Positions 3,762 through 12,408 of a stretch of 64,000 nt of DNA are shown here, in pieces (position 1 is the stretch's first letter; each line of letters begins with the position of its first letter). The DNA comes from Escherichia coli. GTDB taxonomy: Bacteria > Pseudomonadota > Gammaproteobacteria > Enterobacterales > Enterobacteriaceae. The notes under the pieces were generated by a model. That model saw nothing but the letters and a program-made list of their open reading frames with translations. It was not told the origin of the DNA and ran no database searches. A program made the translations under genes and the position numbers. Location of the stretch: the NCBI RefSeq assembly GCF_009931435.1, contig NZ_CP043414.1. The stretch is one strand, 5' to 3'.

Positions 3762-3816
3762 TCTTAACGGGTCTGTAAATGGGGGCCAAGATGTAAATAA
3801 GATTCGCAATACGTCA

Positions 3817-5214
<1,398 letters not shown>

Positions 5215-5273
5215 TTATTCAGTCGATAGTAACCCGCCCTCCGGGGATAGCAAGCATTTTTTGCAAAAAGGGG

Positions 5274-5302
5274 TAGATGCAATCGGTTACGCTCTGTATA
5301 AT
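5274..5302 (+). promoter_or_regulatory. guaBA promoter region; -10 TATAAT at 5297-5302, possible PurR-like operator at 5277-5292
   Basis: TATAAT hexamer 44 nt upstream of the guaB ATG; ATGCAATCGGTTACGC resembles the PurR consensus with mismatches. Confidence 0.45.
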
Positions 5303-5345
5303 GCCGCGGCAATATTTATTAACCACTCTGGTCGAGATATTGCCC

Positions 5346-6812
5346 ATGCTACGTATCGCTAAAGAAGCTCTGACGTTTGACGACGTTCTCCTCGTTCCTG
5401 CACATTCTACCGTTCTGCCGAATACCGCTGACCTCAGCACCCAGCTGACGAAAACTATTCGTCTGAATATCCCTATGCTCTCCGCAGCAATGGATACCGT
5501 AACGGAAGCGCGCCTGGCTATCGCCCTGGCTCAGGAAGGCGGTATCGGCTTTATCCACAAAAACATGTCCATTGAACGCCAGGCTGAAGAAGTTCGCCGC
5601 GTGAAAAAACACGAATCTGGCGTGGTAACCGATCCGCAGACTGTTCTGCCGACAACCACCCTGCGTGAAGTGAAAGAACTGACCGAGCGTAACGGCTTTG
5701 CAGGCTATCCGGTAGTTACCGAAGAAAACGAACTGGTCGGCATCATCACCGGTCGTGACGTGCGTTTTGTTACCGACCTGAACCAGCCGGTCAGCGTTTA
5801 CATGACGCCGAAAGAGCGTCTGGTAACCGTGCGTGAAGGCGAAGCCCGTGAAGTTGTGCTGGCAAAAATGCACGAAAAACGCGTTGAAAAAGCGCTGGTG
5901 GTTGATGATGAATTCCACCTGATCGGCATGATCACTGTGAAGGACTTCCAGAAAGCGGAGCGTAAACCGAACGCCTGTAAAGACGAGCAAGGCCGTCTGC
6001 GTGTTGGTGCAGCGGTTGGTGCAGGTGCGGGTAACGAAGAGCGTGTTGATGCGCTGGTTGCCGCAGGCGTTGACGTTCTGCTGATCGACTCCTCTCACGG
6101 TCACTCTGAAGGCGTTCTGCAGCGTATCCGTGAAACTCGCGCTAAATATCCTGATCTGCAAATCATCGGCGGCAACGTGGCAACAGCTGCAGGTGCCCGC
6201 GCGCTGGCAGAAGCCGGTTGCAGTGCCGTTAAAGTGGGTATCGGCCCTGGTTCTATTTGTACTACCCGCATTGTTACTGGCGTCGGTGTTCCGCAGATCA
6301 CCGCCGTTGCTGACGCAGTAGAAGCCCTGGAAGGCACCGGGATTCCGGTTATCGCAGACGGTGGTATTCGTTTCTCTGGCGATATCGCGAAAGCTATCGC
6401 TGCTGGTGCAAGCGCGGTGATGGTAGGCTCCATGCTGGCGGGTACTGAAGAATCCCCGGGTGAAATCGAACTCTACCAGGGCCGTTCTTACAAGTCTTAC
6501 CGTGGGATGGGCTCTCTGGGCGCGATGTCCAAAGGTTCTTCTGACCGTTACTTCCAGAGCGACAACGCTGCCGACAAACTGGTGCCGGAAGGTATCGAAG
6601 GCCGTGTAGCCTACAAAGGTCGTCTGAAAGAGATCATTCACCAGCAGATGGGCGGCCTGCGCTCCTGTATGGGCCTGACCGGCTGTGGTACTATCGACGA
6701 ACTGCGTACTAAAGCGGAGTTTGTACGTATCAGCGGTGCGGGCATTCAGGAAAGCCACGTTCACGACGTGACCATTACTAAAGAGTCCCCGAACTACCGT
6801 CTGGGCTCCTGA
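5346..6812 (+). CDS. guaB: IMP dehydrogenase
   Basis: 488 aa from the ATG at 5346 ([13 protein letters not shown]...); the ORF track's upstream extension is rejected in favour of the conserved start. Confidence 0.97.
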
Positions 6813-6880: not shown

Positions 6881-8458
6881 ATGACGGAAAACATTCATAA
6901 GCATCGCATCCTCATTCTGGACTTCGGTTCTCAGTACACCCAACTGGTTGCGCGCCGCGTGCGTGAACTGGGTGTTTACTGCGAACTGTGGGCGTGGGAT
7001 GTGACAGAAGCACAAATTCGTGACTTCAATCCAAGCGGCATTATTCTTTCCGGCGGCCCGGAAAGCACCACCGAAGAAAACAGCCCGCGTGCGCCGCAGT
7101 ATGTCTTTGAAGCAGGCGTACCGGTATTCGGCGTTTGCTATGGTATGCAGACCATGGCAATGCAGTTGGGTGGTCATGTTGAAGCCTCTAACGAACGTGA
7201 ATTTGGCTATGCGCAGGTTGAAGTCGTAAACGACAGCGCACTGGTTCGCGGTATCGAAGATGCTCTGACAGCAGACGGTAAACCTCTGCTCGATGTCTGG
7301 ATGAGCCACGGCGATAAAGTTACCGCTATCCCGTCCGACTTCATCACCGTAGCCAGCACCGAAAGCTGCCCGTTCGCCATCATGGCAAATGAAGAAAAAC
7401 GCTTCTATGGCGTACAGTTCCACCCGGAAGTGACTCATACCCGCCAGGGGATGCGCATGCTGGAGCGTTTTGTGCGTGATATCTGCCAGTGTGAAGCCCT
7501 GTGGACGCCAGCGAAAATTATCGACGATGCAGTAGCCCGTATCCGCGAGCAGGTAGGCGACGATAAAGTGATCCTCGGCCTCTCTGGTGGCGTGGATTCC
7601 TCCGTGACTGCAATGCTGCTGCACCGCGCAATCGGCAAAAACCTGACTTGCGTATTCGTTGACAACGGCCTGCTGCGTCTCAACGAAGCAGAGCAGGTTC
7701 TGGATATGTTTGGCGATCACTTTGGTCTGAACATTGTTCACGTTCCGGCAGAAGATCGCTTCTTGTCAGCGCTGGCTGGTGAAAACGATCCGGAAGCAAA
7801 ACGTAAAATCATCGGTCGCGTTTTCGTTGAAGTATTCGATGAAGAAGCGCTGAAACTGGAAGATGTGAAGTGGCTGGCGCAGGGTACTATCTACCCTGAT
7901 GTTATCGAATCTGCCGCGTCTGCAACCGGTAAAGCTCACGTCATCAAATCTCACCACAACGTGGGCGGCCTGCCGAAAGAGATGAAGATGGGCCTGGTTG
8001 AACCGCTGAAAGAGCTGTTCAAAGACGAAGTGCGTAAAATTGGTCTGGAGCTGGGCCTGCCGTACGACATGCTGTACCGTCACCCGTTCCCGGGACCAGG
8101 GCTTGGCGTTCGTGTGCTGGGCGAAGTGAAGAAAGAGTACTGCGACCTGCTGCGCCGTGCTGATGCCATCTTCATTGAAGAACTGCGTAAAGCGGACCTG
8201 TACGACAAAGTTAGCCAGGCGTTTACCGTGTTCCTGCCGGTACGTTCTGTTGGCGTAATGGGCGATGGTCGTAAATACGACTGGGTTGTGTCTCTGCGTG
8301 CCGTCGAAACCATCGACTTTATGACCGCACACTGGGCACATCTGCCGTACGATTTCCTTGGTCGCGTTTCCAACCGCATTATCAATGAAGTGAACGGTAT
8401 TTCCCGCGTGGTGTATGACATCAGCGGCAAGCCGCCAGCGACTATTGAGTGGGAGTAG
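6881..8458 (+). CDS. guaA: GMP synthase (glutamine-hydrolysing)
   Basis: 525 aa [25 protein letters not shown]...; 68 bp downstream of guaB. Confidence 0.97.
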
Positions 8459-8500
8459 GACTGGCTATAAATAGTAAATTAAGCCTTTCCAACTAACTTT

Positions 8501-8532
8501 AATGCCAGTCAGTTTGCTGACTGGCATTTTTT
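8501..8532 (+). terminator. Intrinsic terminator of guaBA
   Basis: 12 bp perfect stem (AATGCCAGTCAG / CTGACTGGCATT), 4 nt loop, then a T6 run; 43 nt after the guaA stop. Confidence 0.75.
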
Positions 8533-8752
8533 ATTGGTTTTTCATTGAGTTTATGACTTCTATTTTTAAGGCCGTAACTCTATAACATCGGCTATGGCCT
8601 AAAGATAAAAGCCATTACCAACAAAATGGCGGTATTCCAAAACAGTCTAGCCGGAAGTGCTTACAATGAGATCGATCAAATCGACAAATGAGATACTGGC
8701 CGTTGTGAGCGCCCGGCAACCGTAGCCGTAGGGGGCGAATTTAATGGCTTTG

Positions 8753-9529
8753 TTATGAGCCATTGGTAATCGCACCCATGACAATTTGAAAGAGTTCTTC
8801 TGCTCGATTAGTGGAGCCAATTGCACCTCTTTCTCTCGCCATTCTCTTGTGCTCTGGTAGATCTGAGGACGCATAGATCATAAAAGGAGTTTTGTCTCCC
8901 ATTGCGCGTAATCTTTCTAGTAAGACATAACCTTCTTGCGCCCCTTCTTTGCGATCCATATCCGAAATAATAGCTGCAAACTTATTTGTTTTTAACAATT
9001 CCAAGGCTTCGTCAGTTGAAAGAGCTAAAGCGAACTCTATTCCCTGTGCCTCAAATGCCTGTCTTTCGTAAACATTATTTTCTGGTCGATCATCCACCCA
9101 TAAAATACGATTTCGCCATTTTTCATGCTTACTCTGCCGTTTTGCATTGGATACAACGTTGACGATTTTTTGCAGTTGGCTTTCAGTGACCCCTGCACTA
9201 TTTTCAGGCTGTTTTGCTGTGGCGGCGGTCAATGATGCTGCTGTAGCTATTTGCGCTCTTAAAAAATTATTTTCATCTTTGAAATCTGACGGCCCGTAAA
9301 GCTTATTATGATGTTTCGCAACAAGCCAGAGAAAGCCAAGAAACACAATGACAGGAAAGAAAACCATGAAATAAATAAGGGGAGCTATATGCTCTGATAA
9401 GCCATTACCAAAGCCAACGACGAAAGAGGCAAATCCATAAACGAGAACAATAAAGAGTGCAATGATACCAAGAGGGCTTTTGGTAAATCCTATTGCAGTT
9501 TCAGCAAATTTCTCTGGTTCCATATCCAT
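8753..9529 (-). CDS. Membrane-anchored receiver-like (CheY-fold) protein: two predicted TM helices plus C-terminal pseudo-receiver domain
   Basis: 258 aa ORF. Hydrophobic stretches at about residues 19-41 and 48-72. Residues about 141-252 align by eye to CheY (ILWVDD for the beta1 acidic pair, IISDMD for the phospho-acceptor Asp, IYASS for the Thr/Ser position), but no lysine at the K109-equivalent position. Low GC, about 40 percent. Confidence 0.55.
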   Translation of the reverse strand: MDMEPEKFAETAIGFTKSPLGIIALFIVLVYGFASFVVGFGNGLSEHIAPLIYFMVFFPVIVFLGFLWLVAKHHNKLYGPSDFKDENNFLRAQIATAASLTAATAKQPENSAGVTESQLQKIVNVVSNAKRQSKHEKWRNRILWVDDRPENNVYERQAFEAQGIEFALALSTDEALELLKTNKFAAIISDMDRKEGAQEGYVLLERLRAMGDKTPFMIYASSDLPEHKRMARERGAIGSTNRAEELFQIVMGAITNGS

Positions 9530-9616
9530 CCTCAGTATTGCTCATAACACAGTTAAGTTGTATTAGATCAGACCTGATCTGACAATTACCGGCTATTTAT
9601 AAAGGTATCTGTCAGA

Positions 9617-10012
9617 TTACATCTGGCTTAAGTTTTTCTCATCCCAGATGTGCTTTCCATCAAGTAACGTTTCCATCGGCGTTCGGCCACTGCACATTTT
9701 TCCCTGATGGGTTCGCTCATTATTATAGTGAACCCGCCATTCATCAAGAACCGATTGTAATGCTTCAAGATCATCATATAACTTTTTGCGGAACGTCACC
9801 TGATAAAACTCGTTCAGTATCGTTTTATGGAACTGCTCGCAGATACTATTGGTCTTAGATGACATTGCTTTCGTTTTCGTATGCTCAATATCATTTATCG
9901 CCAGATAAAGCTGGTAATCATGCTGCTCCACTTTACCGCAATCTCTTGGTGTATTGAGAGGCGGGTTATAAAATAAATACTGATACCATGAGGGCGGATC
10001 AATCGTGGTCAT
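9617..10012 (-). pseudogene. 3' remnant of a DDE (rve-type) transposase gene
   Basis: 131 aa ORF whose C-terminal part (SSKTNSICEQFHKTILNEF...HYNNERTHQG...GRTP) matches the integrase-core C-terminus typical of IS481/IS3-type transposases. The N-terminal two thirds of a transposase are absent and the ATPase gene abuts the truncation point. Confidence 0.55.
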
Positions 10013-10027
10013 AGTATCAGGTCATTC

Positions 10028-11542
10028 TCATGGGTTTATTGCGTCCCTGAAGATGACGTCGCTGACCATCTCTCCTCCAAGAAAATCGATCAACATATTC
10101 GAGTTTTCAAGGTCTTCTCTGGTCAATGCCCCGATTGCTTGTCCAACTACTACCTCCCAAGGTTTTTTACACTCAACAATAGCACAGACGAGTTGGCGGA
10201 TTTTCTTGATCTTCTTGTGACGCAATCGGTCGTTCGATTCCATTAGTTCTGCAATCAACGCTATGTCGGAGTGTGTTTGATTATCCTCAACCCATTTTTT
10301 GGCTGCGTCTACAAATTCCACCCATGTAACATTCATTACTGCAAGGCATGAATCAGTCAAAAGAACATTTTCGATAGCGTAGCATCGTAAGCGATAGCGT
10401 TTAAGAGGTAGGCGATGTTCAAGCGACTTGTTGATTACACCATCGCCATCACGAAGGGAAAAGGCGATTGGATTGTCATAGAGTGTACTAAGGAGGTCTA
10501 CGCAAAAATCCTCAAGTTGACTCTGTTGATCTACGCTACCTGCTAGTACGGGAAAGATTTTTATTCGACCCTGTGATGTTCTGGCCGCTTGTTGCCAGAC
10601 TCGTTCGTCGTCCTCTCCTTCCAAAATTAATGCAGCGTCTTCGCTAAGAGAAAGCGATAGGGGGTGCCCGAAGAATGGTGCAATCTTTCGAAGTTCATCG
10701 CTGGCCGGTATCAATGAGATTTCATTTACTGCAAAGCTCTTCGTGCCGATTGATACATATGGGGAGGCGGCAAGAGAACAGACGAGCGGGGAACTATGGG
10801 TGGATAAGCATATGGCAATACTGTTCGCGTGTGTTCTAAATTCGTCGAGCATACTGATTATCAGCTTGCCCAGTCTAGCTTGGAGGTCGGGGTGCAGATG
10901 TACATCAGGCTCATCGAGGAGGAGTACGTTGAATTTCTCCGGATCTATTGTGTCGAAGAAATAGATGATTTCCGCGGCTAATGCAACCGCTTCCGATTCA
11001 CCGCTACTGATTTGGGCCGGATCAATAATCTGACCATCTACAAGTGATCGAAACTCATAATCGACATTACCCATCTCGAGCGAAATGTTAGTGAGAAGCT
11101 GATTAATTTTACTTAATCGGTCTGTCTGAAAGTTTCGCGTTAGATCAGTTCGAATTTCCGGAGTATTGGCAAGTCGACGTAAGTAAAGCGTCTCGGCCTC
11201 GCGAAATAGCATAGCCGATGCAGCTTTGAAGTTGCTTGCCTGATTAACTGCCCGAGTGTGCCTCAGCCATTCGGGGTTGTCGCTCATATTTGTGAGGACG
11301 GTGCCATCACGCTTGAACGATCCTGCTCGCTCTGGACTTACATACCGGACATAAAATTGCTGCTTGTTCTGGCTGATTGTTTGTTCGATATCGCGAAGGA
11401 AACGACTTTTTCCCGCACCGTTTCGGCCCATAATTATGTTGATGTTGTTTAAGCCGTAAAGTCGGCCAATTTGGCTAGATAACTCGCTTACTTTCAAGAT
11501 TGTAACTCCATTTCTTGTTGCCACATACGGTAACAAATACAC
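10028..11542 (-). CDS. ABC-type ATPase fused to TOPRIM-like nuclease motif (OLD-family / Gabija GajA-like), candidate anti-phage protein
   Basis: 504 aa ORF. Walker A GRNGAGKS (residues 39-46, nt 11405-11428), signature-like SSGESE (179-184), Walker B VLLLDEPD (206-213), H-loop-like STHS (247-250), TOPRIM-like Glu in LILEGEDDE (E308) and DxD in LRDGDG (D365/D367). Start codon uncertain: GTG at 11542, or a TTG at residue 16 preceded by GGAG. About 43-45 percent GC. Confidence 0.6.
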   Translation of the reverse strand: MYLLPYVATRNGVTILKVSELSSQIGRLYGLNNINIIMGRNGAGKSRFLRDIEQTISQNKQQFYVRYVSPERAGSFKRDGTVLTNMSDNPEWLRHTRAVNQASNFKAASAMLFREAETLYLRRLANTPEIRTDLTRNFQTDRLSKINQLLTNISLEMGNVDYEFRSLVDGQIIDPAQISSGESEAVALAAEIIYFFDTIDPEKFNVLLLDEPDVHLHPDLQARLGKLIISMLDEFRTHANSIAICLSTHSSPLVCSLAASPYVSIGTKSFAVNEISLIPASDELRKIAPFFGHPLSLSLSEDAALILEGEDDERVWQQAARTSQGRIKIFPVLAGSVDQQSQLEDFCVDLLSTLYDNPIAFSLRDGDGVINKSLEHRLPLKRYRLRCYAIENVLLTDSCLAVMNVTWVEFVDAAKKWVEDNQTHSDIALIAELMESNDRLRHKKIKKIRQLVCAIVECKKPWEVVVGQAIGALTREDLENSNMLIDFLGGEMVSDVIFRDAINP

Positions 11543-11800
11543 TAACTGAATAGGTGCGTTGATGCCTCATTTTGTTCACATCTATGTTGAAATTAGTGAT
11601 GTGAACGAGCTAAGGACTCTATTAGGAGTAGAGCGGCCATATTGTTCGTCTGAACAGCCTGTAGACAGCTCTATTATTGAGACATGGTATTTTTCGTGGT
11701 ATCTGCTAAGTAGTTTGTTTCAAGGCATTGATTTATTTATATTTTATTTTCTCATTGATAGCTGAGTGGGAATGATTTGATCCCTGCACTATGAATTAGC

Positions 11801-11830
11801 AAAACCCTCTGTTACTACAGAGGGTTTTTT
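11801..11830. terminator. Bidirectional hairpin terminator downstream of yfgI, at the islet boundary
   Basis: AAAA-CCCTCTG-TTACTA-CAGAGGG-TTTTTT; the A-tract/T-tract flanks allow termination in both directions. Confidence 0.55.
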
Positions 11831-11868
11831 ATACTCACGAATCATAGGATTGAAGTTACTGACATCGC

Positions 11869-12408
11869 TTAGTTAAACCAGCTGTCCGATTTGTTCTCTT
11901 CTGCTTTGCCCACGCTTTTCATCAGATCGCGACCGCCTTCAGTCATATTCCTGTTTGCGTCAGCTTCAGATTGCACCACATCGGTTTGCGCAGCTTTGTG
12001 CTTCAGTTCCTGATCGATAAATTCGTTTTCTCGCTTAACGCGGGCTTCTTCTTTCGCCAGCGCCAGTTTTTGTTTCTGAATCTCTAAGCTGCGTAGCTCA
12101 TCTTCATAACTTTGATCGCGTTTCTTGTCCGCAGTGGCTTCGGCGTCCAGTTTATCCTGACGAGCTTTCTTATTTGCCGCTGCCGTTGCCGCTCTTTTGT
12201 TAGCGGCGGCCTGGGCGTTTGCGCGACGTTGCTTCTCTTGCTGGATTTCCCTGTTGCGCTCCGCGACCCATTCGTCATGCTGCCTTTGCTCTTCATTTTT
12301 ACCTTGCTGTTCCGCTTCTGCGACAGCAGAGAGTTGATCCTGCAATGATGAGGCGATAGCCGGATAGCTTAAGGAGGCTAAGATGGCGCAAAGAAAAACT
12401 TTCTTCAT
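11869..12408 (-). CDS. yfgI: Periplasmic protein YfgI
   Basis: 179 aa, signal peptide MKKVFLCAILASLSYPAIA, charged K/E/Q-rich body; synteny with yfgH. Confidence 0.85.
   Translation of the reverse strand: MKKVFLCAILASLSYPAIASSLQDQLSAVAEAEQQGKNEEQRQHDEWVAERNREIQQEKQRRANAQAAANKRAATAAANKKARQDKLDAEATADKKRDQSYEDELRSLEIQKQKLALAKEEARVKRENEFIDQELKHKAAQTDVVQSEADANRNMTEGGRDLMKSVGKAEENKSDSWFN

Follow-up and report, generated by a model that had tools for sequence, protein, structure and literature searches.

The full-length insertion sequences of the IS481 family compared here encode a 346-aa transposase and carry inverted repeats, TGTATTAG...CTGATCTGACA, at both ends. They are flanked by 7-bp target duplications (TTTTAGC, TTTAATG). 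Integrative elements can accrete in tandem at a single site, as in Streptococcus thermophilus, where CIMEs adjoin ICESt3. The GIsul2 island uses the 3' end of guaA, and its published core attachment site is GAGTGGGA (PMC9376610). The GIsul2 integrase has been shown to move in trans a CR2-sul2 unit that is bounded by att sites and has no integrase of its own (PMC9376610).

The locus described here is a small islet at such a guaA site in Escherichia coli. Between its two genes lies a stretch (9559-9942) that is very probably a solo right end, now inactive, of an IS481-family insertion sequence of 1.2 kb.

The window, which is the whole 64-kb stretch of DNA analysed, comes from a chromosome with the gene order xseA, guaB, guaA, islet, yfgI, yfgH, yfgG, pdeF. 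The genes guaA and yfgI are convergent. The spacer between them is 92 bp in K-12 and 3.4 kb in the window. By comparison with K-12, the extra DNA (8455-11762) forms a 3.3-kb islet that takes the place of the 92-bp spacer from the guaA stop codon onwards. It is inserted at the 3' end of guaA, like GIsul2-type guaA-integrating elements. The G+C content of the islet is 40-46%, against 52-55% for guaA. When positions 8400-11900 were compared with 5,426 complete E. coli genomes, the islet was found in 27 of them, at 99.2-99.3% identity. Carriers of the islet include E. coli D8 (NZ_CP010151) and UPEC132. RefSeq annotates three features within it: a 256-aa "response regulator", a pseudogene called "integrase core domain-containing protein" and a 489-aa "AAA family ATPase".

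The islet is bounded by a direct repeat, TGAGTGGGA, at 8446-8454 and 11763-11771. As in the flanking repeats of GIsul2-type elements, both copies contain the core GAGTGGGA (8447-8454 and 11764-11771). The left att-like repeat (8446-8458, plus strand) consists of the last codons of guaA, TGAGTGGGAGTAG, as seen against K-12, and the guaA stop codon is provided by islet DNA. Next comes a non-coding guaA-proximal arm (8459-8752), which is absent from K-12 and 90-98% identical in the Klebsiella and Kluyvera islets. A terminator-like hairpin in this arm (8501-8528, plus strand) stands in for the native guaA terminator. At the other end, the far arm (11498-11762) is the upstream region of the ATPase gene. 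It is homologous to a Pseudomonas aeruginosa locus (L010) up to the att repeat. In another locus (L033), guaA holds an integrated relaxase-bearing element whose end shares 74% similarity with this arm. The right att-like repeat, TGAGTGGGAATGA (11763-11775, plus strand), duplicates the native guaA 3' end and is followed by the native guaA/yfgI terminator hairpin. This copy is the displaced native end of guaA.

No integrase was found in the islet (8455-11762) with the ORF list, Pfam or RefSeq, which gave only three ORFs of note. By its gene content, the islet would be at most an integrase-less remnant or a unit that can be mobilised in trans. It is a further occupant of a GIsul2-type guaA site that also takes prophages and conjugative elements. 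Besides the relaxase-bearing element of L033, the same site holds a prophage in tandem in six E. coli genomes and a conjugative element in a second P. aeruginosa locus (L009).

The stretch between the two islet genes had been read in a first-pass annotation as the truncated remnant of an rve-type DDE transposase that keeps only the C-terminal third of the protein. Both parts of that reading hold, and the family is IS481. The remnant (9559-9942, minus strand) corresponds to about positions 820-1201 of a 1201-bp element. Positions 9553-9942 are 88% identical in nucleotide sequence to a frameshifted IS481-family element of E. coli CP55_Sichuan (L002). Against an intact 1201-bp copy in strain Z1323CEC0019 (L047), the identity over element positions 820-1201 is 87%. 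A full copy of the element lies at 986472-987672 of NZ_CP148401.1. The 131-aa ORF within the stretch matches Pfam rve_3 (E 5.5e-10). It also matches positions 206-283 of the 284 in the NCBIfam IS481 transposase model NF033577 (E 9.3e-23), with a score of 81 bits that stays below the 224-bit full-length cut-off because the profile is covered only in part. Residues 25-131 of the ORF align without gaps to residues 240-346 of the intact 346-aa transposase, with 88% amino-acid identity. The transposase signature of the IS481 family is thus present in both the profile match and the alignment, and the part retained is the C-terminal 31% of the protein. Two outcomes had been named in advance as speaking against this identification: the lack of any IS match, and a match to a full-length protein family other than transposases. 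Neither occurred.

According to the alignment, the transposase coding remnant (9617-9939, minus strand) begins directly after LTDRGTEY (232 in the intact protein). Both this motif and QDTFY (169) are missing, and the transposase is incomplete. The last motif, with the catalytic Glu, is the only one kept, and it is changed: the remnant reads SSKTNSICEQFH where the intact protein has SPQTNGICERFH. From general knowledge of rve-type transposases, we take these three motifs to be the DDE triad. With the 5' two-thirds of the element have gone its left inverted repeat, the region for DNA binding and both of the catalytic Asp residues. With a transposase that lacks its DNA-binding part and two of the three catalytic residues, the remnant would be immobile and presumably has no transposition function. 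RefSeq labels it a pseudogene, "incomplete; missing N-terminus", and PADLOC found no match for it. It is a routine IS pseudogene fragment that RefSeq has already annotated.

The outer end of the IS lies at 9559. From there a 26-bp terminal inverted repeat, TGTATTAGATCAGACCTGATCTGACA, extends to 9584 (plus strand) and matches both ends of the full-length copies. It occurs once in the 64-kb window, against an expectation of 0 from 100 shuffles. A search of the window that allowed up to 3 mismatches found no second inverted repeat. Because the window holds a single terminal repeat, the element is a solo right end. The sequence TTAAGT beside the IS end is similar to the AT-rich sites into which other copies have inserted, TTTTAGC and TTTAATG.

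Two short palindromes had been noted near this end, AGATCAGACCTGATCT at 9565-9580 and ATCTGTCAGAT at 9607-9617, and reading the sequence gives the same coordinates. They had been explained either as residue of an IS terminal repeat or as an operator of the neighbouring membrane-protein gene. The former explanation is right, as both are IS-end sequence in full copies. The latter fails: the palindromes occur in IS copies unrelated to that gene, and an operator was dropped as needless. Palindrome 1 falls within the terminal repeat. Other copies have an imperfect version, AGCTCAGACCTGATCT, with AGTCGCGACTTGATCT at the left end. Here it is perfect through a single base change, where L002 and L047 read AGCTCAG... 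Palindrome 2 adjoins the transposase stop codon and is one arm of a subterminal hairpin (9569-9625, minus strand; fold -22.8 kcal/mol, z -4.9) that is conserved in other IS copies. This hairpin pairs the inner motif of the repeat, ATCTGACA (9577-9584), with TGTCAGAT (9610-9617). It includes the whole of palindrome 2 and the stop codon (9617-9619).

The boundaries of the remnant differ from those first proposed. Positions 9530-9616 had been taken as its 3' flank; positions 9559-9616 are in fact the non-coding end of the IS, and only 9524/9530-9558 lie outside it. On the other side, the truncation had been placed 15 nt from the ATPase stop codon. Only the ATG of the 131-aa ORF is that close. IS-derived DNA ends at about 9940-9942, some 86 nt from the stop codon (10028-10030).

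The 131-aa ORF itself is present as described (9617-10012, minus strand). Its derivation from an IS applies to residues 25-131 and not to the beginning: 24 codons from the 3' flank of the ATPase gene precede the 107 transposase codons. Residues 1-22 are conserved beyond the P. aeruginosa ATPase, where they can also be translated and the IS is absent. The ATG (10012-10010) sits in the stem of a terminator-like hairpin. The foreign first 24 codons and the position of the ATG mark the ORF as an accidental chimera, in which terminator-like DNA is fused to a transposase tail. It is best left out of gene counts.

The ATPase gene (10028-11497, minus strand, with the RefSeq start; the ORF can reach 11542) encodes a 489-aa protein with an ABC-type ATPase domain, matched by Pfam AAA_15 (5.7e-14) and AAA_21 (1.3e-11). 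Its closest models in the defence databases searched with PADLOC are PDC-M01A, AriA and fused AriAB, the last matching residues 85-396 at 2.7e-14. A search of the PDB with the sequence gave weak matches only. The predicted structure (pLDDT 76, with low confidence at 273-323) has its best Foldseek matches in GajA, the retron Eco8 OLD nuclease, PtuA and AriA, at E values of about 1e-7. The protein belongs to the defence-associated AriA/PtuA/GajA/OLD group. Possibly it has a TOPRIM-like C-terminal domain (DUF4435), as suggested by matches in the ATPase (E 0.07) and in 17 of 21 homologues (best E 0.004), all of which are below the Pfam cut-off. The family is 65-94% identical across gamma- and alpha-proteobacteria, and its genes usually stand alone.

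The native 3' flank of the ATPase gene (9943-10027, minus strand; free of IS sequence from 9943/9954) is conserved in P. aeruginosa and Enterobacter bugandensis. Its 85 nt are about 74% conserved downstream of the orthologous P. aeruginosa ATPase, where there is no IS. The flank contains a hairpin with a 12-bp stem (10020-9980), followed by a U-rich tract, UAUUUAUUUUAU (9979-9968). The hairpin folds with -18.9 kcal/mol (z -4.0), and its P. aeruginosa counterpart has a z of -3.3. Hairpin and tract are probably an intrinsic terminator, as predicted from their fold and arrangement. They do not form a canonical GC-rich terminator, and a simple scan flagged no strong canonical one. The motif TATTGAGAGGCGGG (9951-9964), which looks like the guaA end, was considered as an internal att site and rejected. 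Only 5 of its 8 core bases match, and the ATPase islet of P. aeruginosa has it too, some 88 bp from the edge, which makes it module sequence and not a copy of att.

The second gene of the islet (8753-9523, minus strand) encodes a protein of 256 aa that carries two membrane helices at its N-terminus and a receiver (REC) domain at its C-terminus (Pfam Response_reg, E 1.8e-7). It is the gene first counted as 258 aa, since its ORF can also start at 9529. RefSeq names the product a "response regulator" (WP_000433086), and it belongs to a highly conserved solitary family. The membrane helices are very conserved, and the acidic pocket and phospho-acceptor Asp are kept (WVDD, IISDM). PADLOC gave no match for this protein. 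A GAGGA motif precedes the ATG at 9523 by 5 nt. Reading the sequence further upstream, a 35-nt spacer (9524-9558) separates the gene start from the outer end of the IS, and the remnant makes up the whole upstream region of the gene. A wider link between the IS end and receiver-domain genes was considered for E. coli AVS0542, in which a solo end of the same IS comes right after an unrelated 607-aa receiver-domain gene. This case was judged a coincidence because the IS match starts at the last 3 bases of that gene.

Outside the islet, each of the two genes can be found on its own. In P. aeruginosa (L010) and Vreelandella glaciei, the ATPase gene lies beside the guaA 3' end without the receiver gene. 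The P. aeruginosa gene has a 12-bp direct repeat, GAGTGGGAGTGA, on either side. In E. bugandensis, an unrelated 302-aa gene stands next to the ATPase, towards guaA. No homologue of the receiver gene was found at any of 21 other ATPase loci, within up to 6 kb on either side. Conversely, Kluyvera sichuanensis has the receiver gene and the IS remnant beside guaA, and no ATPase. More distant receiver homologues (70-78% amino-acid identity) are solitary in Dickeya, in Pseudomonas cavernicola, in cassette-like arrays of Vibrio and in a relaxase-bearing element. The two genes were seen side by side nowhere but in the Enterobacteriaceae islet with the IS remnant, and their adjacency is not otherwise conserved. 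The K. pneumoniae islet is 98-99.7% identical to that of E. coli, against only 92.5% for guaA. In it, an IS3-family insertion splits the ATPase gene; the receiver gene is intact and 99.7% identical.

The insertion itself is not peculiar to E. coli: Klebsiella, Kluyvera and an enterobacterial contig (L049) have it too. The IS landed some 30 bp upstream of the receiver gene, in the orientation that points its transposase at that gene. How far this insertion has been cut back varies: the remnant begins at IS position 720 in L049, where it is longest, at about 797 in Kluyvera, and at about 818-820 in E. coli and Klebsiella. The 120 bp beyond the L049 remnant had no match among the sequences compared. 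In Kluyvera the cut end borders directly on the native terminator hairpin, with loss of the right att core. Its counterpart in E. coli and Klebsiella is joined to the ATPase flank, some 80 bp before the point where the att of that module would be expected.

These arrangements suggest how the junction may have arisen. The islet is probably the integrase-less remnant of two independent single-gene modules that were stacked at the GIsul2-type guaA site. The IS would have been eroded from its 5' side by independent or stepwise deletions, which are needed because the Kluyvera and E. coli truncations lie only about 20 nt apart yet are joined to different DNA. In E. coli and Klebsiella, a deletion joined IS position ~820 to the ATPase 3' flank, just past the terminator-like hairpin, and thereby created the 131-aa ORF that starts inside the hairpin. 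The same deletion may also have taken the DNA between the modules, the internal copy of att and about 80 bp of the ATPase module arm. We infer the order of these events, since neither an intact IS upstream of the receiver gene nor modules parted by an intact att were found among the loci fetched.

Two other explanations would give the stretch between the genes a different meaning. If the ATPase and the membrane-receiver protein formed a native two-gene operon, the IS would simply have inserted between them. The genes are indeed adjacent and on the same strand, they have been inherited together in E. coli, K. aerogenes and K. pneumoniae at 91-99% identity, and the simple scan mentioned above flagged no strong canonical terminator. 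These points are outweighed by the occurrence of each gene alone at the guaA site in other genera and by the lack of co-occurrence at the 21 other ATPase loci or in the receiver-gene contexts examined. In addition, the hairpin and U-tract are conserved where the ATPase stands alone, and K. pneumoniae has preserved its receiver gene beside a disrupted ATPase. An operon is thereby largely refuted and has become very improbable. The pairing is instead well supported as a secondary juxtaposition, to which the solitary genes at the same site elsewhere, the ATPase's own terminator-like hairpin and the split K. pneumoniae gene all point. This agrees with the first-pass annotation, which had suspected a rearrangement product and had called for a comparison with the ATPase gene in other contexts; P. 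aeruginosa and Vreelandella are such contexts. The 131-aa ORF could also be a domesticated regulator, with the palindromes as an operator of the ORF or of the receiver gene. Its reading frame is uninterrupted in E. coli and K. pneumoniae, and against the intact IS it shows 27 synonymous and 13 non-synonymous codon changes; most of this divergence may, however, predate the truncation. A domesticated protein would have an N-terminus derived from a terminator-like hairpin, no DNA-binding domain and a mutated catalytic motif. Its supposed operator is generic to the IS, and RefSeq calls the ORF a pseudogene. The orthologous copies are disrupted, by an in-frame stop and a frameshift in K. aerogenes and by a five-codon deletion and a stop in Kluyvera, and domestication was rejected on these disruptions. 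It retains next to no probability. The remnant is also less conserved than the receiver gene, at 90.8 vs 96.6% in K. aerogenes and 86.9 vs 93.4% in Kluyvera.

A use for the remnant DNA, as opposed to its ORF, has more in its favour. The roughly 380 bp closest to the REC gene may have been retained as its promoter and 5' leader, including the hairpin. Elements of the IS481 family can drive neighbouring genes. Because the remnant is the entire upstream region, the receiver promoter should lie within it or at its edge, barring read-through past the ATPase hairpin; the IS end is 30-35 bp from the start codon, which leaves no room for a native promoter. The insertion has been kept in E. coli, Klebsiella, Kluyvera and L049, and erosion of its far side to three different points has always left at least 382 bp. 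Between E. coli and Klebsiella, the 58-bp IS end shows 98% identity. However, in Kluyvera its conservation is just 88%, not above that of neutral DNA, and passive erosion from one side would equally keep the proximal part. Nor was a strong outward promoter found. In a consensus scan, the sole sigma-70-like match on the right strand (9747-9719) is weak, at 9 of 12 positions, and promoter-like sites in the region show no excess over shuffled sequence. Co-option is therefore a tentative idea that we think rather unlikely. If the remnant has a role today, the only plausible one is passive, as the upstream region of the receiver gene. A still broader proposal adds to the co-opted IS end that the islet consists of two integrase-less, att-bounded single-gene cassettes. 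These would be mobilised in trans by GIsul2-family integrases and move between genera as candidate stand-alone anti-phage or stress modules. Taken as a whole, this proposal is speculative and unlikely to be right in full.

Reading the locus as an eroded IS481-family end between two secondarily joined genes has practical consequences. Neither an operon nor a two-component defence system is a suitable frame for analysing the two genes of the islet. Both are unusually conserved across distant proteobacteria and are better targets for follow-up than the IS remnant. Beyond these conserved, solitary cargo genes and the architecture bounded by att sites, nothing in the locus merits more work.

Compared with known systems, the remnant is closest to the 1.2-kb IS481-family elements of Enterobacteriaceae, such as those encoding WP_024236841 (E. 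coli Z1323CEC0019) and WP_079961718 (a Salmonella plasmid), to which it is 87-88% identical over the last 382 bp. The RefSeq annotation of these elements goes no further than "IS481 family transposase". It shares with them the style of terminal repeat starting from 5'-TGT, the subterminal hairpin and an AT-rich target beside the end. Unlike the full elements, it retains the last third only, with no left end and no visible target duplication.

The islet resembles GIsul2 and the att-flanked CR2-sul2 unit in its guaA site and in the duplication of the core GAGTGGGA at both ends (PMC9376610). As in GIsul2, the guaA reading frame is restored by sequence of the element; as in CR2-sul2, an integrase-less unit is bounded by att cores. 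It differs from GIsul2 in having no integrase, replication or transfer genes and neither sul2 nor ISCR. The cargo is also different from that of GIsul2 and CR2-sul2, being an ABC ATPase and a membrane receiver protein.

A further parallel can be drawn with CIMEs. They belong to another bacterial phylum and use another target gene, and in the islet the internal att has probably been deleted. Like them, the islet is a small att-flanked remnant without a recombination module that can stand in tandem with other elements at one att site.

Finally, the neighbouring ATPase can be compared with PARIS AriA/AriB, Gabija GajA and the retron-associated OLD/PtuA ATPases. It is shorter than these (489 aa), its DUF4435/TOPRIM match is below threshold and it has no partner gene. 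It shares with them the ABC ATPase fold, its best matches in both sequence and fold are among them, and ExE..DxD-like motifs (EGEDDE, RDGDG) are conserved in its C-terminal half.

The whole 3.3-kb islet (8455-11762) is enclosed by att-like direct repeats, two copies of the 3' end of guaA that lie at 8446-8458 and 11763-11775. Both repeats contain GAGTGGGA, which has been published as the core att site of GIsul2-type integrases (PMC9376610). No integrase gene can be found within the islet itself. In six E. coli genomes, a prophage lies between guaA and the islet (for instance, in KC-Dl-1, locus L007, 1-20000). This prophage encodes a T7 gp14-like core protein, a tailspike-like hydrolase, and a lysis cassette. 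Because its att core is the same as that of the islet, the guaA 3' site is a hot spot for multiple elements.

The islet can also be found in K. pneumoniae (L041), where an IS3-family insertion splits the orthologous ATPase gene (3766-6496). The receiver gene downstream of the split gene is still 99.7% identical to that of the window. Between genera, the islet is 98-99.7% similar, far above the 92.5% seen for guaA, which implies, on sequence similarity, that its transfer between genera was recent.

The remnant at 9559-9942 on the minus strand is the last third of a 1201-bp IS481-family element. The lineages share one insertion of this element upstream of the receiver gene, and it is truncated at three different points, IS positions 720, ~797, and ~820 (truncated copies include 1-601 of the enterobacterial contig L049 and 5570-6000 of comparison locus L032). 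The DNA joined at each truncation differs, and the part of the element proximal to the receiver gene is retained over at least 382 bp in every lineage compared.

Over 69 bp (9761-9829), the remnant matches the ylbG locus at 84% identity. Most E. coli, K-12 among them, carry this locus, and the match suggests that ylbG, too, is what is left of an old, related IS481-family element. In E. coli AVS0542 (L003, 5001-5123), the IS that gave rise to the remnant is represented by a solo end directly after an unrelated gene of 607 aa, labelled "response regulator receiver domain", which is clustered with a cytosine methyltransferase, a 989-aa ATP-binding protein, and a phosphorothioate-dependent restriction enzyme. 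This adjacency is judged to be a coincidence.

The receiver gene (8753-9523) encodes a 256-aa membrane-anchored receiver-domain protein. Its family is strikingly conserved, with a mean column identity of 78% across Enterobacterales, Pseudomonas, Vibrio, and Acidithiobacillus. The gene is solitary in mobile contexts, including cassette-like arrays in Vibrio, and its product has no match in the defence database.

The ATPase gene (10028-11497) is found across alpha- and gamma-proteobacteria with 65-94% identity, and it repeatedly stands alone at the 3' end of guaA. Directly 3' of its stop codon, a hairpin with a 12-bp stem is followed by a U-tract (9968-10028, minus strand). This arrangement is conserved, also in P. 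aeruginosa, and is probably a terminator; a simple terminator scan overlooked the hairpin because its loop is long. The C-terminal half of the ATPase shows a sub-threshold, DUF4435/TOPRIM-like match. The best fold matches of the ATPase are the anti-phage ATPases GajA, retron Eco8, PtuA, and AriA.
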